Origin: an uncultured Chloroflexia bacterium
GTDB lineage: Bacteria; Chloroflexota; Anaerolineae; Anaerolineales; UBA4823
Reading direction: 5' to 3'
DNA: 64,000 bases
NCBI GenBank assembly: GCA_963829555.1
Contig: CAWHJB010000011.1
Location: 68,857 to 132,856 of the forward strand
Shown: positions 3,649 through 55,620 of the stretch, in pieces
How positions within the stretch are numbered: position 1 is the first letter of the stretch
Layout: every line of letters starts with the position of its first letter
Notes under the pieces: generated by a model
Databases searched by the model: none
Told to the model about the DNA's origin: nothing
What the model saw: only the letters and a program-made list of their open reading frames with translations
Translations under genes and position numbers: made by a program

Positions 3649-3664
3649 TGCAAGAGATGTGCCA
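3649..3664 (-). promoter_or_regulatory. sigma-54 -24/-12 promoter candidate upstream of gene 2139..3548
   Basis: The minus strand reads CG-TGGCAC-ATCTC-TTGCA-TC (exact consensus). It is intergenic, about 100 nt upstream of ATG 3548. Confidence 0.7.
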
Positions 3665-3808
3665 CGGGCCAATTAGATTAAGGTATAATGAGTTTTGAAA
3701 TCAAGCAGGCGAGTGGTGCACCTGCTAACCGGGTTGCTATCCTCTTTGGTGCAATTATCTTGCCAGGTGGGTGATCGATGAAATCAGGGAAGAGAAAATC
3801 ATACAATC

Positions 3809-6538: not shown

Positions 6539-6615
6539 GCTTTCCTCTCACTTGCCTCGCAAAATAATATTCGATCGACTGGTGATTCTTCAGAATTGGT
6601 CTCTGTGGTAGGGTA

Positions 6616-6668
6616 CCAGATTTGGGGGCGTGAGCGTGCTGATGCACGCTCGCGCCCCCAAATCTTGG
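6616..6668. repeat. palindromic element, family B copy 1 (core)
   Basis: CCAGATTTGGGGGCGTGAGCGTGC-TGAT-GCACGCTCGCGCCCCCAAATCTTGG. It sits between the kinase stop and the response-regulator start. Confidence 0.95.
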
Positions 6669-6718
6669 GTAGCGCCACAGGAATTCTCAAAGTCACTCAG
6701 GATTTCCCAGGGATCCGA

Positions 6719-8741
6719 TTAACCTGCCGCTTCCTGGGCGGGAATTTCAACTGTAAACACGGTCCCACCCGGGAAGCTTTCAACCTGGATCCGGCCTTTA
6801 TGGGCTGTGATAATTCGTTTTGCGATCGGCAATCCCAGCCCCGTGCCGTCATGTTTGGTCGTATAAAATGGCTGGAATATTTTGTCCAGATTTTCTTTGG
6901 CGATACCTGGTCCCGTGTCAGCGATGCTGATTTTAACATAGGTTAAACCATGCGGGTAAGCGGCCTTATTCAATTTGACGACTAACTGGCCTCCGCTGCC
7001 GCGCATTGCCTGAACCGCATTGGTGATCAGGTTATTAAACACCTGCTCCAGCACCTTGGGGCTGCCCTCAACTTTGGGCAGGTTATCATCTGCCTGGATC
7101 CGGTATTGGACATTTTCTTTCACGATTCTGGGTTTCAAACGGTCGAGAAGCGATTCGAGCAGCCGTTTAAGATCGATGCTTTCCATATCGTATTCAGCGG
7201 TCCGGGCGAACGAGAGGACTTGCCGCATCTGGTCGGTGAGCCGGTCGCAATCGGTCTGGAGGCGCATGACCACTTCATGATTAGGATCAGGCTCTGGGAT
7301 GGTCATCTCTAAAAGCTGCAGGCCGGTGCTGATATTGTTGATTGGATTACGGACTTCGTGAGCAAAGACAGCCGTGAATTCCCCCAGAAAGGCCTGTTGC
7401 TCCAGCTGGCGGGTCCTGTCCTGATACTGTTCTTGCTCGGTCAGGTCTTCGAATTGAATAATGATGGCGGTCACCTGATCGCCGATCATGACGGGCATCG
7501 TGCGGAGTTGGGCCAGGAATGCCTCACCATTGCGGCGATAGAGCTGGAGCTTACCGACGTCGTAGGTCGGGCGGCCCTGTTGGGCAACTTGCAGGGCAGT
7601 TGAAAGCTCGCCTTTGCCGATGATCACATTTTCAATTGGGATCCCAACAACTTCACGGCTGGTATACCCAAGAGTCATTTCAGCGGACGGGTTGATTTTT
7701 GTGATGATGAGTTCCGGTGTTGTGATTAACAATCCGTCTTTGACCGAATTTACAGCCGTAGAATAAACCGCCAGTTCATTGGTATTCGCCTTTAACCTGG
7801 CTTCCAGGTTGTTCAGCAGGTCGTGTTGGCGGGTCAGGGTTGTGATCGCCGCGGCGATCAACTGTGCCAATCGCAGGATAAAGGGATTGGGCTGCTTTTC
7901 GGCTTCACCGATGACGATAAACCCGTCGATCTCGGGTAATCCGGTAGGCGCGGTGGCAATGAAGCTGTATTCCTTGGAGCGGGCGGTGCGATGCAGAACG
8001 GAGGTCATGCGTTTCCCTGCCGTCCAGAGCTGAGTCGAACGCATATTCACCAATTCTTGGGGGGGAAGCGATTCGGGTAAAACCGTGCCATCGCCGACGA
8101 AAACCTTGCGTTTCAAGTAACTCTCGGCCAGTGGTCGAACCAAATTGCCCCGATGTTTCTTCGTCGCTCATCGCTTCCAGGCGATAGTATCCGATAGCGC
8201 TGGCTTTGGTGAGATCGTGTGCCGCCTGGATCGCCCTGGATAAGGCTGTTTTATCCTCAGTCTCATTGATTGCGGCAGCCATCTGGTACAGATTTTGCCA
8301 GATTTGATCTTGAAACTGCAAATCAGCCAGCGGAAGCGTTTGTATTCTGGTTGGTTCGAATTGAACCAGTTCGAATCGATCGGACTGCCCGAGCGTATTG
8401 CGGTTAATTTGAACGGCAAGTTTGCTCCCGTTACGTTTGATCAACATGCCCTTGCTTGCATCTTGAACGCCGGGAACATCATCGGGGGAGGTGGATGGTT
8501 CTTCTGTTCCCGGGTGGGAGCGTCCAGTGAACAGTTCGTTAAATTTGAGCTGACATAATTCAGCCCGGGTATAGCTGGTCAGTGCAGCGACCCTGGTATT
8601 TGCAAAAAGAACCTGACCATTGTTCTTATCGATCAGGATCGATGCGGCCGGGAGAAGTTCGACAAGTGCCTCGATCTCCGCATGGGTTGGCCTGGTTTTA
8701 CGTCCGGGATTAAAGAAAGAGAGGGGCGATGGAGGTTTCAT
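6719..8741 (-). pseudogene. PAS/GAF sensor histidine kinase, frame interrupted once
   Basis: ORF 7905..8741 covers the N-terminal PAS region. ORF 6719..8143 covers PAS, HisKA (FAHEVRNP) and HATPase (DTGPGI...GTGLGL). The two frames meet near 8144-8167, next to the C4 run at 8148-8151. Confidence 0.85.
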
Positions 8742-8743
8742 TA

Positions 8744-10147
8744 TTATGGATGGGCTGCTCTTAATCTCGCTGGTAAGATCCCCTCCATTGTACGATATTT
8801 TGCGACAGTTCGGCGAGCAACCGGGTAACCTCTTTCACCCAGTATTTTCGCAATTTGGGTATCACTCAAAGGTTTGCGTTCTTTATCAACAATTTCGCGC
8901 AGGGCGGTGCGAACGTGCAGGCTGCGATCGAAGAGTTTCGAGATGGAGATAATCCGGCCGTTGGGGAGTTGGAGGGCTTTTCCTGACACTGCCCGCGAAA
9001 CGGTCAATTCGTGTACGCTCAGCTCTTCAGCAATTTTTGCCCTGGTTACCGGGATCAGGTGCGCGTCCCCTTTTAATAGAAAACGCCGCTGTAAAACGAC
9101 CATTCGGGCCATTAATCGCACCAGGGTGTGATTGCGCTGCTGTAAACACTTGACCAGGAGATTGGCTTGTTCAATATCTGCCTGCCATTGTTCGGCTTTA
9201 TCAGCTGGGGCGTCAGGCAATGCTTCCCGGAAAAGCGGGTTCACGCGCAGCCTCCCGGCATAAGGGGAAATGATTTCGACAACCAGCGGCGAGTCTGGCT
9301 TGTCGTTCAATCGTGAAACCAACACATCCGGGGTCTGGTAAACCGTGCGCGGCGCCGTGCTGTGGCGTTGATCGCCCCAGTGGGCACGAGCAGGATAGGG
9401 ATTCAGATTTTCGCTGATGAAGCGCGACAAATTCTGAGCCTGCTTGGTGGAGATTTTTAGCCTTCTCCCCAGCTCCATATAAGCGTGCCGGGAGAGTAGA
9501 TCCATGCAGGTGAGGATCGCTTCGGCTGCCAGGTGAGGCACCTGGTGATTTTCGGCCAACACATCCAGTTGAACCAATAAGGCTTGCTGAGGGCTCCGGG
9601 AACCAACGCCAACCGGCTCGGCCCGTTGGATTAACTGGAGAACGCTTTCCACTCGCGACAAGCGGACATGATGATACATTGCGATCTCAGCAATTTCGAT
9701 GGGCAGCAATCCGTCATCATCCAGGCTGGTGAGAATGTGGGCAGCTAATGGACGGTCTTCGGGCGCCAATTCAGCCGAGATCTGGCGCAGGATGAAGGAA
9801 GGCAGATCTTCAACTGCCGCGGCCCATTCTTCGTCGGGCATGTCCTCGCCCGAGCGCGTGCCAGAATAATTCCGGAAATCGTCGCGCGGCGAAATGAATA
9901 CGATCGGCTCCTCTGGTTCGGTTTTTGCTGGCTTACTGCAAACCGGGCAAGGGCCCTTTTCAGGCAATTTGCGATTACAATTTGGGCATGTGCGGGTTTC
10001 GATCAATTCCAGGGCCGGGTTGGAGGCCAGGTCTGCTTCGATCTTTTGACCCAGTTCAGCGGAGGTCAGTTCAAGCAGTGTCATGGTCTGAGCCAGATGA
10101 GCGGTGGTCATCGGCCGGAGTGCTTGGGATTGCGTTTGGATAATCAT
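8744..10147 (-). CDS. rpoN: RNA polymerase sigma-54 factor
   Basis: From ORF 8744..10195. Start set at ATG 10145-10147 (MIIQTQSQAL...) behind the SD GGGAGTA. It has a Gln/Leu-rich region I and the RpoN box ARRTVAKYR near the C-terminus. It also carries an unusual CPNC-X9-CPVC insertion. Confidence 0.95.
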   Translation of the reverse strand: MIIQTQSQALRPMTTAHLAQTMTLLELTSAELGQKIEADLASNPALELIETRTCPNCNRKLPEKGPCPVCSKPAKTEPEEPIVFISPRDDFRNYSGTRSGEDMPDEEWAAAVEDLPSFILRQISAELAPEDRPLAAHILTSLDDDGLLPIEIAEIAMYHHVRLSRVESVLQLIQRAEPVGVGSRSPQQALLVQLDVLAENHQVPHLAAEAILTCMDLLSRHAYMELGRRLKISTKQAQNLSRFISENLNPYPARAHWGDQRHSTAPRTVYQTPDVLVSRLNDKPDSPLVVEIISPYAGRLRVNPLFREALPDAPADKAEQWQADIEQANLLVKCLQQRNHTLVRLMARMVVLQRRFLLKGDAHLIPVTRAKIAEELSVHELTVSRAVSGKALQLPNGRIISISKLFDRSLHVRTALREIVDKERKPLSDTQIAKILGERGYPVARRTVAKYRTMEGILPARLRAAHP

Positions 10148-10183
10148 ATTTACTCCCTGCTTACTTGGTTCTATTATACCTGT

Positions 10184-10199
10184 TGCAAGAAGCATGCCA
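10184..10199 (-). promoter_or_regulatory. sigma-54 -24/-12 promoter candidate upstream of rpoN
   Basis: The minus strand reads G-TGGCAT-GCTTC-TTGCA-ACA. The -12 element is 37 nt upstream of the rpoN ATG 10147. Confidence 0.6.
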
Positions 10200-10492: not shown

Positions 10493-10543
10493 GGGTCTCT
10501 GGGAAACTCTGCAGGAGAGTCCCCCCAGGAATTGCCAAAGAAC
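10493..10543. repeat. dispersed ~55-nt unit, copy 1
   Basis: GGGTCTCTGGGAAACTCTGCAGGAGAGTCCCCCCAGGAATTGCCAAAGAAC. Confidence 0.85.
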
Positions 10544-19212: not shown

Positions 19213-19484
19213 CCACATTATCTCTTGCTTGTTACAGTCCTGGGAATTCTGCTGGAAGGTTCTTTGGGAAACTTTGTGGGATCCGTCACAGTAATTCACA
19301 ATGGGCGTGCCGGAATGCGTTGGATTTGGGGCAATTGGTGTTATGATTAAGCCTGCCAGAATTGGCATACTGGAAACATTGTTAAGCCAGTATCATATAC
19401 TGTCAAACCCAAATTTGTGATCGCGAATAGCTTCAACCTGGGCAAGAATCCATTTTTGGGTTAACCGCAAAATGGAGGTAAATT

Positions 19485-20105: not shown

Positions 20106-20168
20106 CTTTGGTATTTTCTGTGGTGGTACCCCAAATCTGGAATAAATCACAGAATTCCCAATGAGCGC
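20106..20168. repeat. family-B flanks without the GC-rich core (core-less site)
   Basis: CTTTGGTATTTTCTGTGGTGGTAC-CCCAAATCTGG-AATAA-ATCACAGAATTCCCAATGAGCGC. The left and right flanks match those of family B copies 3 and 4, but only 11 nt of the core are present. Confidence 0.7.
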
Positions 20169-20934: not shown

Positions 20935-20962
20935 ACTCTCCCACAGAGTTTCCTAGGGAGCC
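20932..20962. repeat. dispersed ~30-nt unit abutting family B copy 2
   Basis: GGGACTCTCCCACAGAGTTTCCTAGGGAGCC. Confidence 0.8.
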
Positions 20963-27103: not shown

Positions 27104-27158
27104 GGGTCTCTGGGTAACTCCATGGGAGAATTCCATCTCAGGAATTCCCAAAGGATCC
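27104..27158. repeat. dispersed ~55-nt unit, copy 2
   Basis: GGGTCTCTGGGTAACTCCATGGGAGAATTCCATCTCAGGAATTCCCAAAGGATCC. Confidence 0.85.
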
Positions 27159-29298: not shown

Positions 29299-29330
29299 GG
29301 GGACTCTCCCACAGCGTTTTCCAAAGACCC
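29299..29330. repeat. dispersed ~30-nt unit (CCCACAGAGTTTCC type)
   Basis: GGGGACTCTCCCACAGCGTTTTCCAAAGACCC. This is the reverse-complement orientation of the first half of the 55-nt unit. Confidence 0.8.
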
Positions 29331-32162: not shown

Positions 32163-33645
32163 ATGCCAATTTTTAATGACGCTCGTCTCAGCCCGTTCGT
32201 TGATATTCCCCTCTACCAGCAAGTGTACGCAAACCTGCGAGCATCCATTCTCTCGGGAGAGCTAAAAGCAGGGTTGAAGCTGCCATCGACACGTGCCCTG
32301 GCGGAGGAACTCAACGTATCCCGCAACACCATTCTCAATGCCTACCAACAATTAGTCGCGGAAGGCTATGTAGAAAGTGTCGAGGGTAGTGGCACCTATG
32401 TTGCCCAGATTGCCCCCGACCGTTTATTGGCGCCACAGATAAAGGAAGCTTCTTCGGATGAAGGCTGCTCCTGAGCCTCCCAAACCGCGTTTTTCGGATC
32501 ATGCCAGGCTGCAACTGGCAGCCCCTCAAATGTCCCGGTTGGCTCCATCGCCGATCGAAGTGTCACGACGTCCCTTTCGTTTCGGTATACCGGCCTTGAT
32601 GAACTTCCCTTACAAACTCTGGACGAGGCTGGTCGTTCGCCAGGCCAGGCGGTTGCCCGCCAGTGCCTTTACCTACCAGCATGCGGCCGGTTATCTCCCC
32701 TTGCGGGAAGCGATCGCCGCTCATGCCGTAGCTTCCCGTGGGGTCCATTGCTCTCCAGAACAAATCATCATCGTGCCGGGCGCTCAGGGAGGGCTCGATC
32801 TGGTTACCCGGTTGCTGATCAATGCCGGCGATCCGGTTTGGATGGAAGACCCCGGTTATCTCAAAGCGCGCGGCGCTTTCCTGGGATCAGGGGCGAAAAT
32901 CATCCCTGTTCCGGTGGATCAAGAAGGTATCGTTGTCGAGGTAGGCATTGATCGCGCTCCGCAGGCGCGCCTTGCTTACCTGACTCCCTCGCACCAATTC
33001 CCGCTGGGGGTAACGCTCAGCTTGCCGCGCCGGCTGGCCCTGCTCGACTGGGCCAAACACGCCAACGCATTCCTGATCGAGGACGATTACGACAGCGAAT
33101 ATCACTACACCGAACGTCCCCTGCCGGCTTTGCAGGGGTTGGACAGCGCCGGTCGAGTGATTTATATCGGTACGTTCAGTAAAGTACTCTTTCCGGCTTT
33201 GCGCCTGGGCTATCTGATCCTGCCTCCCAGCCTGGTCGAAGCCTTCCAGACTGTACGCAATCTCATCGATTTACATCCTCCAATTTTGGAACAGGCGGTG
33301 CTCACAGATTTCATTGTTGATGGGCATCTGGCGCGCCATCTGCGCAGAATGCGCAGGTTGTACGCAGAGCGAAGATCGACTTTGCTCGAAGCTGCCCAAG
33401 AGCTACCGCTGGAAATCCGTTCTGCGGAGGCGGGCATGCACTGTGTTGGCTGGCTGCCAGCCGGTATGGATGAGCGTTCGCTGGTTCGGGCAGCTGCCTC
33501 CCGGGAAGTCGATCTTGTGCCAGTTGCCAACTTCAGCATTGAGCCCATGGAGCGCAAGGGGGTCTTGCTGGGCTACAGCGAATACACCGTGGAACAGATC
33601 CGGGAAGGGATGCGTCGGCTGGCCGAAGCGATGCGCTCCCTCTGA
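32163..33645 (+). pseudogene. MocR/GabR-type regulator (GntR wHTH + class-I aminotransferase-like domain), split into two frames
   Basis: ORF 32163..32474 is a GntR HTH (LPSTRALAEELNVSRNTILNAYQQLVAEGYVESVEGSGTYV). ORF 32458..33645 is the aminotransferase-like domain. The frames can only switch within 32440-32474. Confidence 0.8.
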
Positions 33646-33675: not shown

Positions 33676-33704
33676 GGGTACTCCTCAGAGTTTCCCAAAG
33701 ACTT
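33676..33704. repeat. dispersed ~30-nt unit
   Basis: GGGTACTCCTCAGAGTTTCCCAAAGACTT. Confidence 0.75.
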
Positions 33705-37860: not shown

Positions 37861-40800
37861 TTATCGAACGGCAATCCGGTTGCGCCCGGCGTGTTTGGCA
37901 TCATAGAGCGCCTGATCGGCCAGATCGATCAGGGCAGCCAGGTCCGGTGTGCCTGAATGATTGCTGGCAATCCCCAGGCTGATCGAAATATTGAATAAAA
38001 AGCCTCTTGCCGTGAATGGTGTGTGGCTGATTTCCTTGCGAATCCGCTCGGCAATTGCAATCGCCTCCACGGCATTTGTTTCTGGCACCAGGATTGTAAA
38101 TTCTTCGCCCCCATATCGGGCCAGGATGTCGATATCGCGGGTGATGGCTTGCATTCGTTGGGCCAATTCAATCAGCACTTCATCGCCGGTAGCGTGGCCG
38201 AAATTGTCATTCACCCGTTTGAAATGATCGATGTCAATCATGATGGCAGTGATTGGACGTTTAAACCGCAGTGCTCGAAAAAATTCGCGCTGGCCCAACT
38301 CAAACAGGTGCCGGCGATTAAATATCCCCGTCAACGGGTCGGTGATGGCCAATTGTTGAACGGTTTGGAACAGGTACGTATTGGACAACGCAATGGCTGC
38401 ATAAGATGCCAGCATTTCTATTAAATACTGGTCTTCGGATGAATAGGCAAAAGGCGAATAGCTTTGGGTGGATAATACCCCCATAACCTGATTGCCCAGG
38501 CGCATTGGCACAGCCAGAACCGAGCGAACGGTGTCTTTTGAACCAAAATGAATTCCCTGGACCGGCGTGGCTGGGTTCTCAAGGTCCGGGATATTCAAAG
38601 ATCGTCCGGTTTGAAGAACATAACCGCTCAGGCCCTGCTCGATTGGTACCCGGCGGGAAGGAGTTCTCCCGCCTCGATCAACCAGGTAGACGGCCTCGAT
38701 TTCATTCTTTTCGTAATCGACCAGAGAAATCACAAATGATTCACAAACCGTCAGCTGGCTGGCAGCTTTGTGGATCGCGAAATAAATATTCTCCGGCTCG
38801 AGATTCGCGGTGACAATTTCCTGGCTGATCGAATGTAAGATAGCGCGTCTTTCAGCAGCTTCTCTAGCCGATTGGTACAAACGGGCATTCTCTACGGCGA
38901 TGGCTGCTTGTTGAGCGAAAAGGTTCAACAACTTCTGATCGTCCTGGGTAAATTTCCGCTTTTGGTGGAGATCGACGATACCAATACATCCCACCAGGCG
39001 ACCACCAATCAATAAAGGCGTCGCCAGGGCGGCCTGCCAGGGTTCATCTGGAAGATTCGGTATGCGACCCAGCCAATTCGGATAATTATTCAGTAAAAGC
39101 GGCTGCAGGGAGGCGGCTACCTTTCCAAGGATGCCCTCCCCAATATCCAAACGATTGCCGGATCGATCGATGCCCATGTTGTGGCTGGCGACAATGACAA
39201 GATCGTTCTGATTTTCCTGATACAAGGCCAAATCGCCCCCGCTGGCATTCAACAAGCCGATTGCCCGGATCAGAATCGCCCGCAGTAATTTCGATAGCTC
39301 CAGTTCGGAAGAAATATCCGTCATCGTCGCTCGCAGTGCATCCAATTGGCGGACCCGGCCCTGTTCAGCCATGTACATACGTGCGTTTTCAATTGCAATA
39401 GCTACCTGGTCGGCGAACAGGGACACCAGATGGGAGTCTTCTTCGTTGTAAAAATTCTCTTTATGGTGGTCGAGTACCAGCACGCCAATCAAATGCTCGT
39501 GGACAATCAGCGGAACCCCCAGCCAGGAGCGAATAGGTTGGTGTTGGGCAGTTTGCATACCTGGAAATTTGATGCTGGCGCTGCCGGTAAAATAGGGCTG
39601 GCGAGTTTCGATAACAAGCGTGTTGGGGTTGTCACCCGGGATCGGGAAGCGCATCCCAATAACCGCGTCTTGATCCAACCATCCGCGCCCGCCTACGATG
39701 ACGAGTTCATGGTCTTCGTAAATTTGCACCGAAGCGCTGTCATAAGGGATCACTTTTTCGAGCTGAACCAGGATGCGTTCAATCGCTTCTTCCTGGTCGA
39801 GCGTGCTGACAATCGCAGAGGTTGTCTCGCGCAGGGTCTCTGCCTGTTCGCGCTGTTTCCTTTCAAAGTCGAGTAAGCGATTGTTTTCAATCACTATTGC
39901 GGCCTGATTTGCAATGGCTACTAACAGCTCCTGATCCTGAAGTGTAAATTGGTTTTGATCGGATCGCTTAATGGCGGTGATGGTCCCAAGTTTTTTCGTC
40001 TGAAAAAGCAAAGGGGCTACCAATATGGAACCGGATTGGGTCTTGATTCTCCTTTGCCGAACACTGGCTGATTCCCTCGCATCCGGTTGGCAACCATCGG
40101 AAATGGCCGGCCGAGCTTCCCGCAGACACCAGCCGGTCAACCCATTCATCAACTCCTGGTAAGAAACGACTTCAATGTGAGATTTTCCCTCGCCGCCCAC
40201 AAATTGCTTGAGAATGGTTTCTCGTTTCGTGTCTAAAAGTATCAGGCTTACCCGGTCGCTGTTCAGCACCTGAGCCACTTTCGCCAAAATAGATTGCAGG
40301 GCGGTATCCAAAGTGCCAATGCTGATCAATGTGCGGCTGATGTCATACAAAGTTTCAGTGATGGCCAGTCGCTCGGTTATTTTTTGTTTGGCTGCTTTCT
40401 CTTCGCTGATATCTCTAACATGAACGACCAGCCGGGGTTCCCCTGAAATATTCATCAGCCGGCTGCGTACCTTGGAGGGGAAGACGCTCCCATCCTTGCG
40501 TCTTCCCAGGCTTTCCTTGACAATTTCTTGATCTTCCAGGATGGTTTTGAACTCGTACATAAGCGCTTCATGCTGCTCATCCGGAACCAGTTCGGTAACA
40601 TTAATGGCCTGGAATTCACTCAATGTATAATCGTAGGTTTCACAAGCAGCGGCATTGCAATCCAGGATGTTTCCTGCCAAATCCTCAATAAAAATACATT
40701 CGTTGGTCGATTCAAATAAGGTTCGGTATTTAAGTTCACTTTCCTCGACTGCTTTTTGGGTATTGATATATGCGCTGATCTGGTGATTGATGATGATTTC

Positions 40801-41787
40801 GCCAATTTCCTTATCAGACGAATCCGTTAACTGCCTGACCAGCATCTCATAATAGTTGTGATTGTGTTCATGCTGCCAGATGACTTCATGATGGGTGTTT
40901 TTAGCCACTTGAAACCCATTGTAAAAACTCTGGAGAGCTTGAACTGCATGTTCCAATAATTGTCCGGCATAAAGTTTGCCCTCATCATCGATCATTTGAT
41001 TGGCGGCTGGATTAAAACTGATGATCTGTTCATCCATATCCAGAATGATGATCGCTGCACTGAGGTTGTTGATAATCGTATGATAAGAAATGGGTAAATT
41101 TTTGAAAGCTGATTTGCGGAACAATATCCAGGCGATCACGCATCCAGATACAGCAAAGATTGCCGGCGTAGGATCGATTTGGAACGGGCGGAAGATGCTG
41201 GTGATAAACAGCAAGTTGGCGACCATTGGCAGACTAATGGCTGACACCAATGCCAGGATTGGAAATTGGTAATACTTCGGGCTGGAAAACGAGAATTTTA
41301 TTAGAATGAGATTTGCAGCCAGCAATAAGCCGTAAGAATACAAGGCATGTACCCAGAATAGCGGCTTGAATATGGTCAGCCAGTTGGCATGCAGGATTCC
41401 TGGGCTGATATCGACATTGACCCAAAGGAGATGGTGTTGCGCATTGGTCCATGCCAGGATGACTGTTGCCAGCGGAATGATCGCAAGCACAGCCAGTTTC
41501 TTAAAGCTGATCCACTCAGACTGACCTGTGTAAATTAAAGCAATCAGGAACCAGTTGGTTGGGATCAAAACAATCCCGATGTACTCAAACTGAATTGCAA
41601 AAAGCTTCAGGTTTGCCTGGGTAGCGCTGATCTCGATCAGGTTGCCCAATGACCAGATTGCGGCGCCAAGCATAAAGAAAATAAAGGGCTTTGCCGCTGG
41701 TCTGTGGGAATTGCGAGCGCCCAGGATTGCCAGGGTTAAAGCAATCCCACAGGTAATGGTCAAAGAGATAATCATCGGATCAGACAT
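37861..41787 (-). CDS. multidomain diguanylate cyclase (N-terminal 7-TM sensor, PAS, several GAF domains, GGDEF)
   Basis: 1308 aa. About 230 aa of TM helices, then PAS regions and at least four GAF-like blocks. C-terminal GGDEF domain (RYGGEEFTIL) with an RxxD-like I-site context. Confidence 0.9.
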   Translation of the reverse strand: MSDPMIISLTITCGIALTLAILGARNSHRPAAKPFIFFMLGAAIWSLGNLIEISATQANLKLFAIQFEYIGIVLIPTNWFLIALIYTGQSEWISFKKLAVLAIIPLATVILAWTNAQHHLLWVNVDISPGILHANWLTIFKPLFWVHALYSYGLLLAANLILIKFSFSSPKYYQFPILALVSAISLPMVANLLFITSIFRPFQIDPTPAIFAVSGCVIAWILFRKSAFKNLPISYHTIINNLSAAIIILDMDEQIISFNPAANQMIDDEGKLYAGQLLEHAVQALQSFYNGFQVAKNTHHEVIWQHEHNHNYYEMLVRQLTDSSDKEIGEIIINHQISAYINTQKAVEESELKYRTLFESTNECIFIEDLAGNILDCNAAACETYDYTLSEFQAINVTELVPDEQHEALMYEFKTILEDQEIVKESLGRRKDGSVFPSKVRSRLMNISGEPRLVVHVRDISEEKAAKQKITERLAITETLYDISRTLISIGTLDTALQSILAKVAQVLNSDRVSLILLDTKRETILKQFVGGEGKSHIEVVSYQELMNGLTGWCLREARPAISDGCQPDARESASVRQRRIKTQSGSILVAPLLFQTKKLGTITAIKRSDQNQFTLQDQELLVAIANQAAIVIENNRLLDFERKQREQAETLRETTSAIVSTLDQEEAIERILVQLEKVIPYDSASVQIYEDHELVIVGGRGWLDQDAVIGMRFPIPGDNPNTLVIETRQPYFTGSASIKFPGMQTAQHQPIRSWLGVPLIVHEHLIGVLVLDHHKENFYNEEDSHLVSLFADQVAIAIENARMYMAEQGRVRQLDALRATMTDISSELELSKLLRAILIRAIGLLNASGGDLALYQENQNDLVIVASHNMGIDRSGNRLDIGEGILGKVAASLQPLLLNNYPNWLGRIPNLPDEPWQAALATPLLIGGRLVGCIGIVDLHQKRKFTQDDQKLLNLFAQQAAIAVENARLYQSAREAAERRAILHSISQEIVTANLEPENIYFAIHKAASQLTVCESFVISLVDYEKNEIEAVYLVDRGGRTPSRRVPIEQGLSGYVLQTGRSLNIPDLENPATPVQGIHFGSKDTVRSVLAVPMRLGNQVMGVLSTQSYSPFAYSSEDQYLIEMLASYAAIALSNTYLFQTVQQLAITDPLTGIFNRRHLFELGQREFFRALRFKRPITAIMIDIDHFKRVNDNFGHATGDEVLIELAQRMQAITRDIDILARYGGEEFTILVPETNAVEAIAIAERIRKEISHTPFTARGFLFNISISLGIASNHSGTPDLAALIDLADQALYDAKHAGRNRIAVR

Positions 41788-41894: not shown

Positions 41895-43322
41895 TTAAGC
41901 TGCGACCGTGCGGTCTCTTCCGTCGGATTTTGCCCGGTATAAAGCCTGGTCGGCCAGTTCCAACAGGCTTTTCAAATCCCCCATATCATCGGTGATACCG
42001 GCGATGCCCAGGCTGATGCTCACCGCGATGCGGGCTATCGGTGTTTTGAGCGCGGTTGTCTTTATCCTTTCACGCAGCCGATCCGCGACAATCTGGCCTC
42101 CCGACATGTCAATTTCCGGCAGGAGCACAACGAATTCATCCCCGCCATAACGCCCGATGATATCTACCTTGCGGACGCTGTTCGTCAGGGCAACTGCAAC
42201 CAATTTGAGAACATCATCGCCGACCGAATGCCCAAAGTTATCGTTAACTTGTTTGAAGAAATCGATATCGCCCATGATCGCGGTCAAGGGTCTCCCAAAT
42301 CGGTGAGCACGCTCAATTTCCCGTTCGCCCAGTTCGAACAATCCTCGGCGATTATATAAGCCGGTCAGTGCATCGGTAATCGCCAGTTTTTGAACTTCCG
42401 TGTGCAATTGCGCATTGTGGATCGCGGCCGTCACGGTGGCTGCAAAGCTGACCAGCAAACTCAAATCTGACTGGCTGAAAGCCGATTCGGTATTCGCCTC
42501 GAGGGATACTGCCCCTAATACATCCCCTTCCAGGATTAAAGGCGCAACGATTGCGGATTGCGACAATTCCAGTTCATCAGCTTTTTCCTGAACATCATTG
42601 GGCAGGTTTCCGTTTTCTATTTTGGGAATCAGTAAAGGTTTCCGGGTCCGCACGGATTGGGCCACAAAGCCGCGGCTGGTCTGGGTGGACAGCCTTTGAA
42701 TCCTGGGATTATGCTCTCCATATCCAAGCGTGGCGCGCATTTCCAGTTTGCCGGTATCCTTGGCAATGATGTGCAGGGTACCCTTATGGGCTGCCGGGAT
42801 GGCATTCGTCGCTGCATCCAGGATTTGATTCAAGAGATCTTCGAGGTTAAGCGTCGTCAGTAAAGCCCGTGTGGCTGTGTACAGCCCCTCGATCTTGCGG
42901 TTGACATATTTTTGGGCGATATCTTGAACTTGCTGTTCATTAAAGGGAACACCGACCGCCATCACTTCCTGCAAATTCCCATCCTCAGAAAATTTACCAG
43001 ATAATTTCCAATGCAGGATGTCGTGATGGCTTTCAGAGAATTTATCCGTTCGGTTAACTTCGAGCTGGGGGTGATCTTCGACCAGAGCGGTAAAATGGGT
43101 TTGAATTTCGGTGTGCTGTTCCTTTGGAAGCGCCTTAAAGACATTCAAACCAATAATTTTCTCAGCCGGGATGGCATAATATTCCTCAAATGCCGGATTT
43201 ACGTAAAGAACGGTCCCATCTGGCTTTAGCTGGCAGATGAGTTGGGTCTGATCTTCGACGATCGCACGGAACTGCGCGTCGTCATCGTGCTTTCGTCTGT
43301 CATTATGGAAAGATCGCAGCAT
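41895..43322 (-). CDS. PAS-GAF-GGDEF diguanylate cyclase
   Basis: 475 aa. C-terminal GGDEF domain (RYGGDEFVVLL) preceded by LTGLYNRRG. Confidence 0.9.
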   Translation of the reverse strand: MLRSFHNDRRKHDDDAQFRAIVEDQTQLICQLKPDGTVLYVNPAFEEYYAIPAEKIIGLNVFKALPKEQHTEIQTHFTALVEDHPQLEVNRTDKFSESHHDILHWKLSGKFSEDGNLQEVMAVGVPFNEQQVQDIAQKYVNRKIEGLYTATRALLTTLNLEDLLNQILDAATNAIPAAHKGTLHIIAKDTGKLEMRATLGYGEHNPRIQRLSTQTSRGFVAQSVRTRKPLLIPKIENGNLPNDVQEKADELELSQSAIVAPLILEGDVLGAVSLEANTESAFSQSDLSLLVSFAATVTAAIHNAQLHTEVQKLAITDALTGLYNRRGLFELGEREIERAHRFGRPLTAIMGDIDFFKQVNDNFGHSVGDDVLKLVAVALTNSVRKVDIIGRYGGDEFVVLLPEIDMSGGQIVADRLRERIKTTALKTPIARIAVSISLGIAGITDDMGDLKSLLELADQALYRAKSDGRDRTVAA

Positions 43323-43418
43323 TATATCCTGGGCCCCGGATGATTTGATTATTCCAAAGTGACCTGATTATAATCTATCATCGTATCTACTTCGACAATA
43401 TCACATTAAAAAAAGATA

Positions 43419-43473
43419 CCCAAATTTTGATGTGTGTGGCGGGAGTTGCCCGCCACACACATCAAAATTTGGG
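43419..43473. repeat. palindromic element, family C copy 1
   Basis: CCCAAATTTTGATGTGTGTGGCGGG-AGTTG-CCCGCCACACACATCAAAATTTGGG. Confidence 0.95.
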
Positions 43474-43500
43474 CTAATCGTAATAGTTGGCTGGTTGAAG

Positions 43501-44052
43501 TCAGGCTACCACGCGGTGGGCAAACGCGACCACATCCCGTTTCGCCAGCGCCATCGGTACCCGGATGACTCCCATCGCAGGGATTGCTGGCTGGCTGATC
43601 GCGACTTCGTAGATCATGGTGTAGCGTTCGGAAGTAACATCCAGGTAGCGTTCAAGGTTGGTCTGGTTGGACATTCGCAGGGTACCATCAAACCGGAAAC
43701 TGCCGACCAGCGCGGTGATTGGTTCCATTTTTCGGTTGGGCTCATCAGGATCATAATCCAGGGGTTCGCGATCCGGGGGTTTGATGTGAAACGCGAACAC
43801 CTGCGGCGTGGGAATGTGCAATTCGGCATAACTGTATGGCTTGATCGGCCCTGCGCCACCAAGGGTGATCACCTGGGCCTGCCGCAGGGTGATATATTGG
43901 GGGGCCATGGCGGTACGCAGCCAGACACTGACTTTGATCGCCTCCCTGGTGTACAGGTCTCCCCAAACCATCGTATTGAGTGTATAGATCATCACGGGGG
44001 TTAGCTTTTCCCCGGCGGCTGGTCCAGTAGAAGTGCTGGGGATTTGATCCAT
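43501..44052 (-). CDS. hypothetical protein (183 aa) behind a sigma-54-type promoter
   Basis: From ORF 43501..44253. Start set at ATG 44050-44052 (MDQIPST...), which has the SD AAAGGAG 8 nt upstream. The longer ORF would include the promoter motif (44166-44181) and a repeat element. No family recognised. Confidence 0.6.
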   Translation of the reverse strand: MDQIPSTSTGPAAGEKLTPVMIYTLNTMVWGDLYTREAIKVSVWLRTAMAPQYITLRQAQVITLGGAGPIKPYSYAELHIPTPQVFAFHIKPPDREPLDYDPDEPNRKMEPITALVGSFRFDGTLRMSNQTNLERYLDVTSERYTMIYEVAISQPAIPAMGVIRVPMALAKRDVVAFAHRVVA

Positions 44053-44165
44053 GTCCACGGCTCCTTTCGCAAGCGGGTGCAAGGTTTCAACTGAGAAGCT
44101 CAACTTGACGGAGGTCCAGGCGCCTGCCGGGTTGAGCTGAGTCTCTTCAATCTTGGTGTTTACAT

Positions 44166-44181
44166 TGCAACCGTCGTGCCA
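44166..44181 (-). promoter_or_regulatory. sigma-54 -24/-12 promoter candidate upstream of hypothetical gene 43501..44052
   Basis: The minus strand reads CC-TGGCAC-GACGG-TTGCA-AT (exact consensus). It lies 114 nt upstream of ATG 44052. Confidence 0.7.
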
Positions 44182-44248
44182 GGGACCATTCCACGGAGTT
44201 TCCAAAGACTCTTTCCTGATTCTCTGGGAAATTCTGTGGGAGGGTACC
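44182..44248. repeat. inverted pair of ~30-nt units directly upstream of the sigma-54 promoter candidate at 44166-44181
   Basis: GGGACCATTCCACGGAGTTTCCAAAGACTC ... TCTCTGGGAAATTCTGTGGGAGGGTACC. Confidence 0.75.
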
Positions 44249-44402
44249 ACCACAGAAATACCGATAGATTCCCTTTCCTGAACGGCTGCATGAACGGTTA
44301 AGAGATTATAATGAGCCTGGTCAAAATTTGGATAAATTCCTCAAATCGGGAACTATCCATCATGATACCAGACAGGTTATCAATCTTATTTCGGAGAACA
44401 AC

Positions 44403-45710
44403 ATGCGCGCAGTAGATATCATCATTAAAAAACGTGATCGAGGAGAATTGACTCGTCAAGAGATTGACTATTTCATTCAGGGATATACCAGCGGTCAGAT
44501 ACCGGACTATCAGGCAGCTGCCTTCGCGATGGCAGTCTTGTTAAACGATATGACCGAGGAGGAAACGACTAACCTGACTTTAGCGATGGCTGCTTCGGGT
44601 GATATTCTGGATTTTTCCGATGTCGTGCCGATTGCAGTCGATAAACACTCAACCGGTGGGGTGGGCGATAAGACGACCCTGGTCGTCGAACCGGTGGTGG
44701 CTGCCTGCGGACTGCCGGTGGGCAAGATGTCTGGCCGGGGCTTAGGCTTCAGCGGTGGGACGCTGGACAAGATGGAATCGATCCCTGGCTACCGTACGGA
44801 CCTCACGACCGCCGAGTTTATGCACCAGCTTGGCGATATTGGTCTGGTACTGACTGGCCAAACCGGCGACCTGGCCCCGGCAGATGGCAAGCTCTATGCG
44901 TTGCGGGATGTCACCGGGACGGTTCAATCGATCCCATTGATCGCCTCATCCGTGATGAGTAAAAAAATCGCGGCTGGAGCCGATGCGATTGTGTTGGATG
45001 TCAAATTGGGAGCGGGCGCGTTTATGAAGAATTTGGAGCAGGCCCGCAAGTTAGCCTCTCTGATGGTTTCGATCGCCCGGCTTGCTCGCCGGAGAGCGGT
45101 CGCGTTGCTTGCAGATATGAACCAGCCGCTTGGCCAGGCAGTGGGGAATGCCCTGGAAGTGCAGGAATCCATCGAAACCTTGCATGGCGGCGGCCCGGCG
45201 GACTTTCGGGAACACTGCCTCATCGTAGCCGCTCATATGTTGTCTTTGGGCGGTAAAGCCGTTTCCGAAGCAGAAGGACGCCAGTTGGCGGAACAGGCGC
45301 TCGCCGATGGGCGGGCCTGGGAAAAATTTGTCGAGCTGGTCAATGCCCAGGGCGGGGATGTCAGTACGGTTGAAAACCCTGACAGGCTGCCTAAGGCAAA
45401 CCTGATCGAAACCATCAAGGCGCCTCGGGCCGGCTATTTGAGCGAGATTAACGCCCGCATGATTGGTGAATCGGCTGTAACGCTGGGAGCTGGCAGGCTG
45501 CGTTTAGAGGATCCCATCGATCACTCGGTTGGCATCGAGATTCTGCATAAGGTTGGCGATTGGATTGCCAGTGGCGATGCGCTGTTTGTGATCCATGCCC
45601 GTCAGCAGGATGAGCTGGAGGAAGCCTGCCATCGAATCCTGGCTGCGCATAGCTGGTCGGATTCGCCGGTGGAGCCGCTGCCGCTTTTTTATGAGGTCAT
45701 TAAAGAATAG
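44403..45710 (+). CDS. pdp: pyrimidine-nucleoside (thymidine) phosphorylase
   Basis: From ORF 44328..45710, with the start at ATG 44403 (MRAVDIIIKKRDRGELT). Motifs: DKHSTGGVGDKT and SGRGLGFSGGTLDK. Confidence 0.93.
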   Translation: MRAVDIIIKKRDRGELTRQEIDYFIQGYTSGQIPDYQAAAFAMAVLLNDMTEEETTNLTLAMAASGDILDFSDVVPIAVDKHSTGGVGDKTTLVVEPVVAACGLPVGKMSGRGLGFSGGTLDKMESIPGYRTDLTTAEFMHQLGDIGLVLTGQTGDLAPADGKLYALRDVTGTVQSIPLIASSVMSKKIAAGADAIVLDVKLGAGAFMKNLEQARKLASLMVSIARLARRRAVALLADMNQPLGQAVGNALEVQESIETLHGGGPADFREHCLIVAAHMLSLGGKAVSEAEGRQLAEQALADGRAWEKFVELVNAQGGDVSTVENPDRLPKANLIETIKAPRAGYLSEINARMIGESAVTLGAGRLRLEDPIDHSVGIEILHKVGDWIASGDALFVIHARQQDELEEACHRILAAHSWSDSPVEPLPLFYEVIKE

Positions 45711-47591: not shown

Positions 47592-47681
47592 CGACAAGCC
47601 CTCATCGAAGAAAGATTTTTCGCCCAAGGTTCGTACATAGGCTTGAGTAGTGTGAAAATGTCATATTAATATACAGGATAC

Positions 47682-47735
47682 CCAAATTTTGATGTGTGTG
47701 GCGGCCGCCCGCCCGCCACACACATCAAAATTTGG
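47682..47735. repeat. palindromic element, family C copy 2
   Basis: CCAAATTTTGATGTGTGTGGCGG-CCGCCCGC-CCGCCACACACATCAAAATTTGG. The left flank CAGGATAC is shared with copy 3. Confidence 0.95.
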
Positions 47736-47791
47736 ACGATTTCTTCGAATGTGACATTGTCAAGGTAGATACGAATTTTCTCAGCCCAGTT

Positions 47792-50277: not shown

Positions 50278-52464
50278 TTAATTAGAGGAGGAATGAACTT
50301 CTTCGCCGGGACGATAGGAACGCTCAAGATTTGCTTCGATCATTGAACGGTCCATCCAGGCCGGCTTGAGTTGATGGGCAGCGAACAGGGGCGATTGATC
50401 GGCGTAGTGAGGGGAGTCAGAATCGAGCGTCGCGCTGCCATACTGGTGAATGCTGAAAGCCTGCAGTTCTCCGTTTCGATCCCATTTTGCGAGTAATACA
50501 TACAAATCGCCGGTGTATCCGATCAGGCGGCCGTCTTCCGCCAGATGACCATAAACAGCTCGCAGGATATCCGGGCCCCCGTCCAGCCCAATATCGACCG
50601 AACCACGTACCAACCGGTTCGCTTCGCTCCAGGGGACATCGATGGTGCCGTATTTTTGCCGGATCAGTTTAACGGCTTCGGTCAGAGAGTTCAACAAGGC
50701 TTTATCGGGGATCATTGTATTGACCATTGCCGAGGCGTTAATGGGCAGATCATTTTCCAACATGCGAACCAGGGTGAAAACCCAGATCGTTGCAGCCGGG
50801 CTATCGGCCGACATACGCAGGTCCCAGCTGGTCAGCAGATCGAGGGCGTGTTGGAGATCGGGATCATCCGGTATCTTCATGTGGGAAAGATGTTCGATGA
50901 AATGAGGCGGATCGGAAAATCTGGAGTAGCTGTTATCGAACTTATATCCGATGAATTCCTCAAAGCCAATCGATGGGTCACCTCCAAACAGTTCCAGGGC
51001 CCTTAAGGCGCGGTTGCTCATATTCTTTTCAATGCCCAGAGTCTCCGAGTACTGGTTGGGATCCGGGTTCCAGGGATCCAGGGTTGTCTGGAAGGGAGTG
51101 CTGTTTGCGTTTTGAACGAATCCAGAGGGGGGATTAAGCACCTGGGGCAGCGCATCGAACGGCAGGGTCTCCGTCCAGAGCGTCTCCGAGGTGTTCCCCG
51201 GCAGGTAAAGCGACCAATCGTAGCCTTCCTGACGGATAGGCAGCAAAGCATTGTAAACATAATAAATATTGCCATCCCGATCTGCATAACCGACATTGAA
51301 GCTTGGCAGACCGCCATCACTCAGGGCGTCTCGCCACTCTTCAAAATTTGTGGCTTTATTCATCCGGTACAGCTGTTGAAAAATATCCACCCGTCCGTAA
51401 CCGGCATACCTCAGTGCATATGTCCCGTGTTTCTGGCGCACGACCGGACCGTAGACAGACCAGTAGACCTTTTCTTTGACCGTCCAGGTTAACCGACCCA
51501 ACAGCTTAACCTTGATGGGGGCATCGCGTTCTTCCAGGGTTAACCAATCGCCATCGAACTGGTAGCGTTTGGGCTGGTAATAATCTGTTTCCAGGACATA
51601 AACGTCGGTCAGGTCGGGATGATTGACTGTGAAAGCCCAGCCCAGGTTACGGTTGGCGCCGTGAATAATGACCGGTGTGGCGGGAAAAGTTGCCCCGGTC
51701 ATATCCCAGCCGGTCTCGCTGTGGACGTGGGCTTCATACCAGGTGGTGGGCCCTTCCCAGGGCTGATGCGAGTTGACCGCCAGAAAGGTTGACCCGTCTT
51801 CACTCCGCCCGGGACCGATGCTAAAGGTGTTGGAACCGAAGCGTTCATCCACGTTGAACAACCCACTGGTTGGAGAGGGGGATAATTCGCTCTGGCGGCT
51901 GTCGGCAAACAATTCGGCCAGGGTATCGTCCAGACCGAAGAAAAGCGGTGATTTATGGATCGAGGCAGCCGCCAGGTCGCGGCCGGTGACCGGGTAGAGG
52001 CCGGCTGTCAGCACTTCTTTGGGATGCAGGGCGGCATAAACATTGACCCCATCCGCATACGCTTCCAACAAGGCCCGCGTGTCCGGCGTCAAATCCCGCT
52101 CGTAAGTCTCGGCGACCACATCCCAGATCCGTAGAAGCTGGACCATGTAATCGTTCGGGGCGGCATCTTTACCATAGACGCTGGCAAGCTGCCCGCGGGC
52201 AGCCAGGAGGGTTTGTTGGATGGTGAGAAAATCATCCTCGGCGTGCGCATATGCCAGACCATAAGCCGCATCCGCGTCCGTCTGTCCAAAAATATGTGGT
52301 ACCCCCCAGGTGTCCCGTAAGATTTCGACTTGATAAGCTTCACCGCGCTGAGCCAGGTCCGATAAATCGACGCGTTCCGGGCTCAAAATGAACACGATGG
52401 CTGCAACGCAGACCACGATCAAGACGAAACCGATGCGTTTTATCAGTGAGAGGTAGTTTTTCAT
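50278..52464 (-). CDS. penicillin/acyl-homoserine-lactone acylase family (Ntn hydrolase) protein
   Basis: From ORF 50278..52557, with the start at ATG 52462-52464 (MKNYLSL..., TM/signal anchor). Candidate Ser nucleophile context GSNTFSIG. Size and domain order are typical of the penicillin amidase family. Confidence 0.8.
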   Translation of the reverse strand: MKNYLSLIKRIGFVLIVVCVAAIVFILSPERVDLSDLAQRGEAYQVEILRDTWGVPHIFGQTDADAAYGLAYAHAEDDFLTIQQTLLAARGQLASVYGKDAAPNDYMVQLLRIWDVVAETYERDLTPDTRALLEAYADGVNVYAALHPKEVLTAGLYPVTGRDLAAASIHKSPLFFGLDDTLAELFADSRQSELSPSPTSGLFNVDERFGSNTFSIGPGRSEDGSTFLAVNSHQPWEGPTTWYEAHVHSETGWDMTGATFPATPVIIHGANRNLGWAFTVNHPDLTDVYVLETDYYQPKRYQFDGDWLTLEERDAPIKVKLLGRLTWTVKEKVYWSVYGPVVRQKHGTYALRYAGYGRVDIFQQLYRMNKATNFEEWRDALSDGGLPSFNVGYADRDGNIYYVYNALLPIRQEGYDWSLYLPGNTSETLWTETLPFDALPQVLNPPSGFVQNANSTPFQTTLDPWNPDPNQYSETLGIEKNMSNRALRALELFGGDPSIGFEEFIGYKFDNSYSRFSDPPHFIEHLSHMKIPDDPDLQHALDLLTSWDLRMSADSPAATIWVFTLVRMLENDLPINASAMVNTMIPDKALLNSLTEAVKLIRQKYGTIDVPWSEANRLVRGSVDIGLDGGPDILRAVYGHLAEDGRLIGYTGDLYVLLAKWDRNGELQAFSIHQYGSATLDSDSPHYADQSPLFAAHQLKPAWMDRSMIEANLERSYRPGEEVHSSSN

Positions 52465-52567
52465 CGGATAGCTTCCATGTAGCAGTAAGGTTGACTGACA
52501 GGCTGCGGCGACTGATTGCTCTGATAACGGACAGAAGCAATATGAACGTTGATACAATGAAGGTCAT

Positions 52568-52583
52568 TGCAATGCTTATGCCA
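52568..52583 (-). promoter_or_regulatory. sigma-54 -24/-12 promoter candidate upstream of the acylase gene
   Basis: The minus strand reads AC-TGGCAT-AAGCA-TTGCA-AT. It lies 104 nt upstream of ATG 52464. Confidence 0.6.
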
Positions 52584-52709: not shown

Positions 52710-52764
52710 GGGGACTCTGGGAAACTCTGCGGAAGAGCACCATCCCAGGAATTCTCAAAGAACC
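52710..52764. repeat. dispersed ~55-nt unit, copy 3
   Basis: GGGGACTCTGGGAAACTCTGCGGAAGAGCACCATCCCAGGAATTCTCAAAGAACC. Confidence 0.85.
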
Positions 52765-54283: not shown

Positions 54284-54330
54284 TTCATTTTCTGCAACTT
54301 TTGGGTCTTTAGGAAAATCTTTGGAATAGT

Positions 54331-54384
54331 CCCAGATTTGGGGGTGTGAGCGTGCGGATGCACGCTCACACCCCCAAATCTGGG
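54331..54384. repeat. palindromic element, family B copy 4 (core, loop inverted)
   Basis: Arms are identical to copy 3, but the loop is GGAT, the reverse complement of ATCC. This copy is therefore inserted in the opposite orientation. Confidence 0.95.
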
Positions 54385-54450
54385 GCACCACCACAGAAAT
54401 TCCCAATGGGCGCACCTTTGAGCGCTTCCTTATGAGGGCCGTCATGTATA

Positions 54451-55560: not shown

Positions 55561-55620
55561 AAACAGGATACCCAAATTTTGAGGTGTGTGGCGGGCAGCC
55601 GCCCGCCACACACCTGTTTC
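55561..55620. repeat. chimeric palindromic element (family C left half, family-D-like right half)
   Basis: AAACAGGATACCCAAATTTTG-AGGTGTGTGGCGGG-CAGCC-GCCCGCCACACACCT-GTTTCGCC. Only the 14-bp inner stem pairs. Confidence 0.85.

Follow-up and report, generated by a model that had tools for sequence, protein, structure and literature searches.

The consensus of canonical sigma-54 (-24/-12) promoters is YTGGCACGrNNNTTGCW, as reported by Barrios et al. (1999). The FlgS/FlgR system of H. pylori is similar to the CtcB/CtcC-sigma-54 system of Chlamydia. The Chlamydia activator CtcC consists of a receiver and an AAA+ ATPase and has no DNA-binding domain (PMC7482065). Sigma-54 has been recorded in 'some Chloroflexi' by Francke et al. 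(PMC3162934), and no experimental work on sigma-54 in Chloroflexota was found in the literature searched. Regulation by sigma-54 is hardly explored in this phylum; the promoter described here is well supported and open to experiment, and comparison with relatives gives it a clean footprint.

The window, i.e., the whole 64,000 nt stretch of DNA that was analyzed, has an exact -24/-12 sequence on the minus strand (TGGCACGACGGTTGCA, positions 44166–44181). It reads TGGCAC-GACGG-TTGCA and is a 12/12 match to the motif. The GG (44180–44179) and GC (44168–44167) elements are exactly 10 nt apart, and the context is that of canonical promoters, with a C before TGGCAC and a G after it. The last base, 44166, is 113 nt 5' of the ATG at 44052. 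The first-pass annotation had given this distance as 114 nt; the position of the motif is correct, but 114 is the plain difference of the coordinates and 113 nt intervene. Exact matches to TGGCAC-N5-TTGCW are found three times in the window where 0.08 are expected from shuffled sequences, an enrichment of approximately 40-fold, and sites with at most one mismatch are found 11 times (2.83 expected). All three exact sites are on the sense strand, 50–113 nt 5' of a start codon. The sequence at 44181–44166 is very likely a genuine, evolutionarily conserved sigma-54 promoter of the short gene downstream. The sigma-54 motif proposed in the first-pass annotation is upheld by the exact match, by the presence of RpoN and a bacterial enhancer-binding protein (bEBP) in the host, and by a footprint in seven lineages.

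The footprint comes from close relatives with 72–87% protein identity, which represent six lineages (P0002, P0003, P0004, P0005, P0006 and P0010; loci L043–L047 and L049–L052). In all six, CTGGCA[CT][GA]ACGNTTGCA is located 28–108 nt before the ATG. The spacers are largely unalignable, and this sequence is almost the sole conserved block within them. The alignment of the seven lineages shows 15 of the 17 motif columns to be invariant, compared with a mean column identity of 44%. The motif is present in every lineage with at least 72% identity, and in five relatives' loci (4–16.5 kb) it is the only site with at most one mismatch on either strand. The gene order, i.e., a divergent pyrimidine-nucleoside phosphorylase (PYNP) gene, the 183-aa gene and a GGDEF gene, is maintained in the relatives where enough flank was recovered; P0010 is on a short contig, and neither the PYNP nor the GGDEF neighbor is visible there. 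Homologues with 65% identity or less (43 loci) do not have the sigma-54 motif. A search with 13 sequences gave 42 loci of GTDB species representatives (33–60% identity), all but one labelled Anaerolineae/Chloroflexota, and these have a single match with two mismatches, which is the background level. The homologue with 65% identity (L048) has no motif and shows TTGCTA-17-TACAAT instead.

The gene for the 183-aa protein is at positions 43501–44052 of the minus strand (ATG at 44052–44050, stop codon at 43503–43501). Its start follows the N-termini of homologues: in an alignment of 26 sequences, 25 of 25 homologues begin at the position of ATG 44052, and the length is approximately 180 aa in 49 homologues. 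A longer open reading frame starts at 44253. This start is wrong because all 25 aligned homologues begin at the shorter position, and the 44253 reading frame and the 234-aa version on record (P0001) are, by this alignment, over-calls. An in-frame GTG at 44058 aligns with the ATG of relatives, so the protein is either 183 or 185 aa. The Shine-Dalgarno sequence AAAGGAG is at 44067–44061, 8 nt ahead of the ATG. The first-pass annotation had identified both this sequence and the shorter gene correctly.

The predicted 5' UTR, positions 44053–44155 of the minus strand, includes the Shine-Dalgarno sequence; its start is placed by the usual distance past the GC of the -12 element. It is conserved neither in sequence nor in length, and the distance from the -12 element to the ATG is 28–113 nt across the window and its relatives. 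An Rfam search for a riboswitch or leader gave only hairpin artefacts on the palindrome described below and no match to the 5' UTR, and the folding of the 5' UTR is close to that of shuffled sequence (z-score of 0.2). A riboswitch or structured leader was rejected on these two results. On the promoter side, the PYNP gene is on the plus strand with its ATG at 44406. As it is divergent, positions 44053–44405 represent a divergent promoter region, a point absent from the first-pass annotation. The 183-aa gene is also overlapped by an antisense open reading frame of 190 aa on the plus strand (43432–44004). Similar ones are present in many homologous loci, in some of which they continue into the PYNP reading frame; the 190-aa frame is treated as a shadow of the codon structure.

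The divergent region has a palindromic sigma-70-type -10 box, cATTATAATc, at positions 44304–44313 (ATTATAAT), which is invariant in the close relatives and is also present in distant syntenic loci. Seven distant loci with a divergent PYNP gene (L004, L017, L019, L020, L023, L028 and L038) have a spacer of approximately 90 nt and a single cATTATAATc box 30–45 nt before the ATG of the family gene. In the window's clade the box is invariant, the spacer has grown to 235–460 nt, the box is 135–430 nt from the ATG, and the sigma-54 element is between the box and the gene. Read in the PYNP direction, the box is [AG]GATTATAAT, the same form as the box of the GGDEF gene (see below). As judged from these spacers, the promoter box that the PYNP/gene spacer had ancestrally is cATTATAATc. 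In the window this box probably works for the divergent PYNP gene and may also be a distal promoter for the 183-aa gene. We infer a single, recent acquisition of the sigma-54 promoter in one Anaerolineae subclade (homologues with at least 72% identity), beside the ancestral promoter, because these homologues carry the motif, those with 65% identity or less lack it, and the syntenic ones keep the short cATTATAATc spacer. The retained box could drive the gene constitutively, in which case sigma-54 would be only one of two inputs. The first-pass annotation had noticed neither the restriction of the promoter to one subclade nor the ancestral box upstream of it. The gain of a sigma-54 promoter beside an ancestral sigma-70-type box is clearly illustrated by this locus, which is useful for studying recruitment into alternative-sigma regulons. 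A reading of TTGCAA in the motif as a sigma-70 -35 element was considered and rejected; by our own reading of the aligned sequences, the relatives have no conserved -10 sequence at suitable spacing.

No enhancer is conserved approximately 80–150 nt upstream of the promoter; in the aligned spacers of the relatives, the cATTATAATc box is the only sequence upstream of the -24 element that is kept. This is not disqualifying for the promoter, as activators that have no DNA-binding domain, e.g., CtcC, do not depend on enhancers and the bEBP of the window is of this type (see below), and the absence of a conserved enhancer fits an activator of this type. The region upstream of the -24 element is occupied by three REP/MITE-like units with the core CCACAGARTTTCCCAGAG (positions 44191–44271). 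Two of them (44218–44239 and 44250–44271) are the arms of an inverted pair and are 77% complementary, and a third, degenerate copy (44191–44209) stops 9 nt short of the -24 element on its upstream side. The first-pass annotation had drawn attention to an inverted repeat at the promoter. The pair is present, but a role at the promoter is not supported, as the repeat is a generic intergenic one with a position that varies in relatives. For the same reasons, its wide dispersal and its shifting position, it was rejected as an enhancer. Hairpin-forming repeats are inserted between the box and the -24 element in four lineages, and their positions and forms differ.

The 18–22 nt unit CCACAGARTTTCCCAGAG has 15 copies in the window, compared with 0.4 in shuffled sequences, and nearly all are intergenic. 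Copies are present, e.g., at 6675–6712, 10497–10514, 19262–19279, 20106–20123, 20941–20958, 27108–27125, 29309–29326, 33683–33700, 52715–52732 and 54307–54408. A second family of repeats, palindromes with 25-nt arms, is found at 43419–43473, 47681–47736 and 55571–55595. The first of these is the "family C" palindrome that had been noted between the genes, and it is indeed a dispersed element with other copies. In L050, two units of the CCACAGARTTTCCCAGAG type flank a long palindrome of this kind, and this arrangement suggests a composite MITE/REP-like element. Some dispersed repeat copies stand where terminators would be expected.

Two GGDEF genes are downstream of the 183-aa gene on the same strand, as had been reported. 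The nearer one encodes a PAS-GAF-GGDEF diguanylate cyclase (41895–43322, minus strand, ATG at 43322), and the second is at 37861–41787. The spacer before the nearer gene has a terminator-like sequence (43408–43473, minus strand), which consists of the perfect 25-bp palindrome at 43419–43473, TATC and a run of seven T residues at 43414–43408. The hairpin has a delta G of -48.4 kcal/mol. The whole resembles an intrinsic terminator; a terminator scan passed over it, as its T-run begins 4 nt past the stem. A sigma-70-type box that belongs to the GGDEF gene itself, GATGATAGATTATAATCA, is at 43365–43382 of the minus strand. This box is kept in all five lineages compared (the window, L043, L044, L045 and L050) across otherwise unalignable, repeat-filled spacers of 178–790 nt.

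Comparison of 47 family loci shows no universal partner gene when conserved neighbors are analyzed. A PAS-GAF-GGDEF gene is the downstream neighbor in approximately 10 of the 47, and the order SecD-SecF-epimerase-gene-HtpG is found in approximately 13. In two loci, L001 and L004, the start of the GGDEF gene overlaps or abuts the stop of the family gene, and both are without the sigma-54 promoter. The GGDEF gene is probably transcribed independently of the 183-aa gene. Their adjacency looks like inherited synteny because of the hairpin and T-run, the separate GATGATAGATTATAATCA box, the variable neighbors and the abutting loci that have no promoter. The first-pass annotation had suggested a link between sigma-54 and c-di-GMP signaling. 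This link is not supported by the comparison, given the hairpin with its T-run, the GGDEF gene's own box in five lineages and the GGDEF neighbor in only about 10 of the 47 loci; on present evidence the locus does not connect the two systems.

Pfam, NCBIfam and PDB sequence searches with the 183-aa protein find no relative, which agrees with the earlier statement that no family was recognized, and none of the 26 aligned members has a Pfam match even at E ≤ 1. A profile search of 1.84 billion proteins (cluster representatives) gave 184 cluster representatives, nearly all of them standalone proteins of approximately 180 aa, and no distant families. No fusion among the longer members was informative, and one of these members appears to be a chimera produced by assembly. 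By these searches the family is small and confined to Anaerolineae. The AlphaFold2 model has a pLDDT of 91 and a pTM of 0.85 and displays two beta-beta-alpha-beta-beta-beta modules (residues 15–90 and 107–179), modelled as two small Sm/SH3-like beta-barrels. The most conserved stretch in the 26-sequence alignment is the linker between the barrels, HxxPPxxxPxDYDxxExNRKMEP. A comparison of one half with the other by hhalign, for internal duplication, shows no sequence similarity. A search of a viral fold library was uninformative.

HMM and Foldseek searches had been proposed for this protein in the first-pass annotation. They give no HMM family and only a weak structural resemblance: the top-ranked Foldseek matches in the PDB are all Sm/LSm chains, each over one half of the protein, with E values of at least 4.6e-3. 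The alignments have 75–88 columns and TM-scores of 0.5–0.69 when normalized to the target. Foldseek gives no match at E ≤ 1e-3 and no full-length match among solved structures. While each half of the model aligns with Sm/LSm (Hfq-like) chains, the family sequences match neither Pfam LSM nor any PDB sequence and give no sign of the Sm1/Sm2 motifs. The short helix is between strands 2 and 3 in the model and is N-terminal in canonical Sm proteins, and the family has two barrels in one chain, joined by its most conserved motif. The protein also resembles the PilZ/YcgR c-di-GMP receptors in that it is a two-barrel protein of a size in the range of approximately 180–240 aa beside diguanylate cyclase genes; however, neither RxxxR nor D/NxSxxG is present in the conserved columns of the family. 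A PilZ receptor was rejected on the absence of these motifs, of a Pfam PilZ match and of any PilZ structure among the top 50 Foldseek matches. Judging by the model, the protein would most likely act in the cytoplasm by binding RNA or another ligand, or as an adaptor, and is less likely to be an enzyme. The family, found only in Anaerolineae, merits attention as one with a confident two-barrel model and no full-length match among solved structures.

The window also encodes sigma-54 itself. The rpoN gene (8744–10147, minus strand) encodes an intact protein of 467 aa with three Pfam domains (activator-interacting, core-binding and DNA-binding) and the RpoN box ARRTVAKYR. The bEBP, a receiver and AAA+ activator of 387 aa, is encoded at 5375–6538 of the minus strand and has GAFTGA at residue 216 and Walker A and B motifs. 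It matches NtrC/AtoC models only to approximately position 380 of 460, and therefore has no DNA-binding domain. Activators of 387–395 aa without this domain are found in four genomes (the window, L053, L054 and L055). The bEBP of the window is a candidate for the activator of the promoter at 44181–44166, and the genome may encode further bEBPs outside the window. Anaerolineales have RpoN homologues in abundance, and one contig of 2.5 Mb carries both a close homologue of the 183-aa gene and an RpoN with 84% identity. A possible zinc ribbon, CxxC-x10-CxxC (CPNCNRKLPEKGPCPVC), is inserted in the RpoN of the window at approximately residues 54–70 (9940–9990 in the window), behind the activator-interacting region.

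The rpoN gene, a PAS histidine kinase gene and the bEBP gene form one apparent operon (5375–10199, minus strand), and in relatives the start of the kinase gene overlaps the stop of rpoN. The kinase is found as two open reading frames, 7905–8741 and 6719–8143, with a frame switch at approximately 8100–8150, and is a single gene of 666–695 aa in relatives. The switch is either a real frameshift (a pseudogene) or an assembly error, and unless it is an assembly error the local sigma-54 module may be impaired. A sigma-54-type site, TGGCATGCTTCTTGCA, is located at 10199–10184, 36 nt before the rpoN ATG at 10147; in L053, L054 and L055 the flanks have diverged and the site is an exact consensus. The arrangement suggests autoregulation by sigma-54 and activation without an enhancer.

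Other sites of this type are present in the window. The exact consensus TGGCACGAGTATTGCA is at 2160–2175 of the minus strand, 50 nt before the ftsZ ATG at 2109, and TGGCACAAGTATTGCA is at the corresponding place in L053 and L055. The ftsZ site falls within the final codons of the 472-aa open reading frame upstream, so coding constraint could explain its conservation. Transcription of ftsZ from sigma-54 would be unusual; ftsZ is probably part of the regulon. The 472-aa frame is directly upstream of ftsZ (ATG at 3548), has no Pfam or NCBIfam match and is preceded by two tandem sites (3649–3664 and 3750–3765, minus strand) at 100 and 201 nt. L053 has both of these, and only the proximal one is seen in L055. 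Relatives with an RpoN identity as low as 68% keep the sites at rpoN, the approximately 470-aa frame and ftsZ, and therefore this core regulon predates the recruitment of the 183-aa gene. Sites with one mismatch are found at 52568–52583 (minus strand), just upstream of a penicillin amidase gene (50278–52557), and at 32390–32405 (plus strand), 52 nt before an aminotransferase gene (ATG at 32458).

A mechanism can be proposed in which the RpoN holoenzyme would bind the GG and GC elements as a closed complex, which an AAA+ activator would then open. The best candidate for this step is the receiver-AAA+ protein encoded with rpoN in the window. Lacking a DNA-binding domain, this protein would act from solution in the manner proposed for Chlamydia CtcC, and its activity would be set by the partner PAS histidine kinase. 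Transcription would start near 44155, a predicted position, and would stop at the hairpin and T-run at 43473–43408. The product would be a single-gene mRNA for a cytoplasmic protein of 183 (possibly 185) aa, with the GGDEF genes outside the transcription unit. The sigma-54 promoter would have been inserted between the gene and the ancestral cATTATAATc box, which persists, and its acquisition would have joined the 183-aa gene to an older sigma-54 regulon of rpoN itself, the approximately 470-aa frame and probably ftsZ.

The main competitor of this reading is that the gene is driven chiefly by the sigma-70-type box at 44313–44304 and that the -24/-12 element is secondary or modulatory, for example as a conditional boost or as a closed complex that blocks distal read-through. 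The box is 30–45 nt before the ATG in the seven distant syntenic loci and is invariant in the window's clade, and since its core is palindromic it could fire in either direction. However, in that clade it is 135–430 nt from the ATG, and four lineages have hairpin-forming repeats between it and the -24 element. Its [AG]GATTATAAT form towards PYNP, like that of the GGDEF gene's box, suggests that it now serves PYNP, and the -24/-12 element is conserved strongly enough to speak for its use. A gene driven mainly by the box is a possibility to be taken seriously, although an unlikely one. The idea that the sigma-54 promoter drives an operon with the GGDEF genes and gates c-di-GMP synthesis draws on the shared strand, on the adjacency in approximately 10 loci, and on L001 and L004, where the GGDEF start overlaps or abuts the stop of the family gene. 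Those two loci are the ones without the sigma-54 promoter, though, and in the sigma-54 clade the spacer is 178–790 nt, with a hairpin of -48 kcal/mol and seven T residues in the window. With the GATGATAGATTATAATCA box before the GGDEF gene in five of five lineages and many family loci without a GGDEF neighbor, a shared operon appears improbable.

The remaining alternatives concern the motif itself. Conservation of A-C-G in its spacer is beyond what sigma-54 strictly requires, so a second protein could share the site, and the 17-mer might even be the operator of an unrelated DNA-binding regulator, its resemblance to sigma-54 promoters being a coincidence. Yet invariance falls exactly on TGGCA and TTGCA at the 10 nt GG–GC spacing, the variable positions (the sixth base, C/T, and the spacer) are the ones that also differ between known sigma-54 promoters, and the site lacks palindromic symmetry. 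RpoN is encoded in the genome, a conserved copy of this consensus precedes rpoN, ftsZ and another open reading frame, and exact matches are enriched approximately 40-fold. An operator of this kind is very improbable. A chance occurrence without function is hardly credible: scanning many windows does yield some exact matches, but this one is conserved in seven lineages within unalignable flanks, is on the correct strand at the correct distance to a gene, has sigma-54 machinery in the same window, and is the only such site in the relatives' loci. The comparative data effectively refute chance.

The preferred reading, a conserved sigma-54 promoter of the 183-aa gene, can be extended to the whole system. 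In a filamentous Anaerolineae subclade there could be a compact, enhancer-independent and self-activating module, an operon of rpoN, kinase and an activator devoid of a DNA-binding domain, with a small regulon that includes ftsZ and with the 183-aa protein as a newly recruited effector. This extension is speculative and somewhat doubtful. If it is true, the two-barrel 183-aa effector would, e.g., bind RNA or a ligand and have a part in division, stress or the differentiation of filaments, and a switch of promoter class from sigma-70 to sigma-54 would have been caught in progress. A compact, apparently self-regulated and enhancer-independent sigma-54 module with its regulon in Anaerolineae is of more interest than the promoter of the 183-aa gene itself.

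In comparison with canonical sigma-54 promoters, the promoter of the window has the exact TGGCAC-N5-TTGCA on the sense strand upstream of a gene, in a host with RpoN and a GAFTGA AAA+ activator. It differs in that it has no conserved upstream activator site and in that it is specific to one subclade, where it was added downstream of a retained sigma-70-type box. The closest likeness in regulatory design is to CtcB/CtcC-sigma-54 of Chlamydia, which also has an activator without a DNA-binding domain, a histidine kinase partner and a small regulon defined by promoters alone. The differences are that rpoN, the kinase and the activator are here in one apparent operon behind their own conserved sigma-54 site, and that the putative regulon consists of the 183-aa protein, the approximately 470-aa open reading frame of no recognized family and possibly ftsZ.
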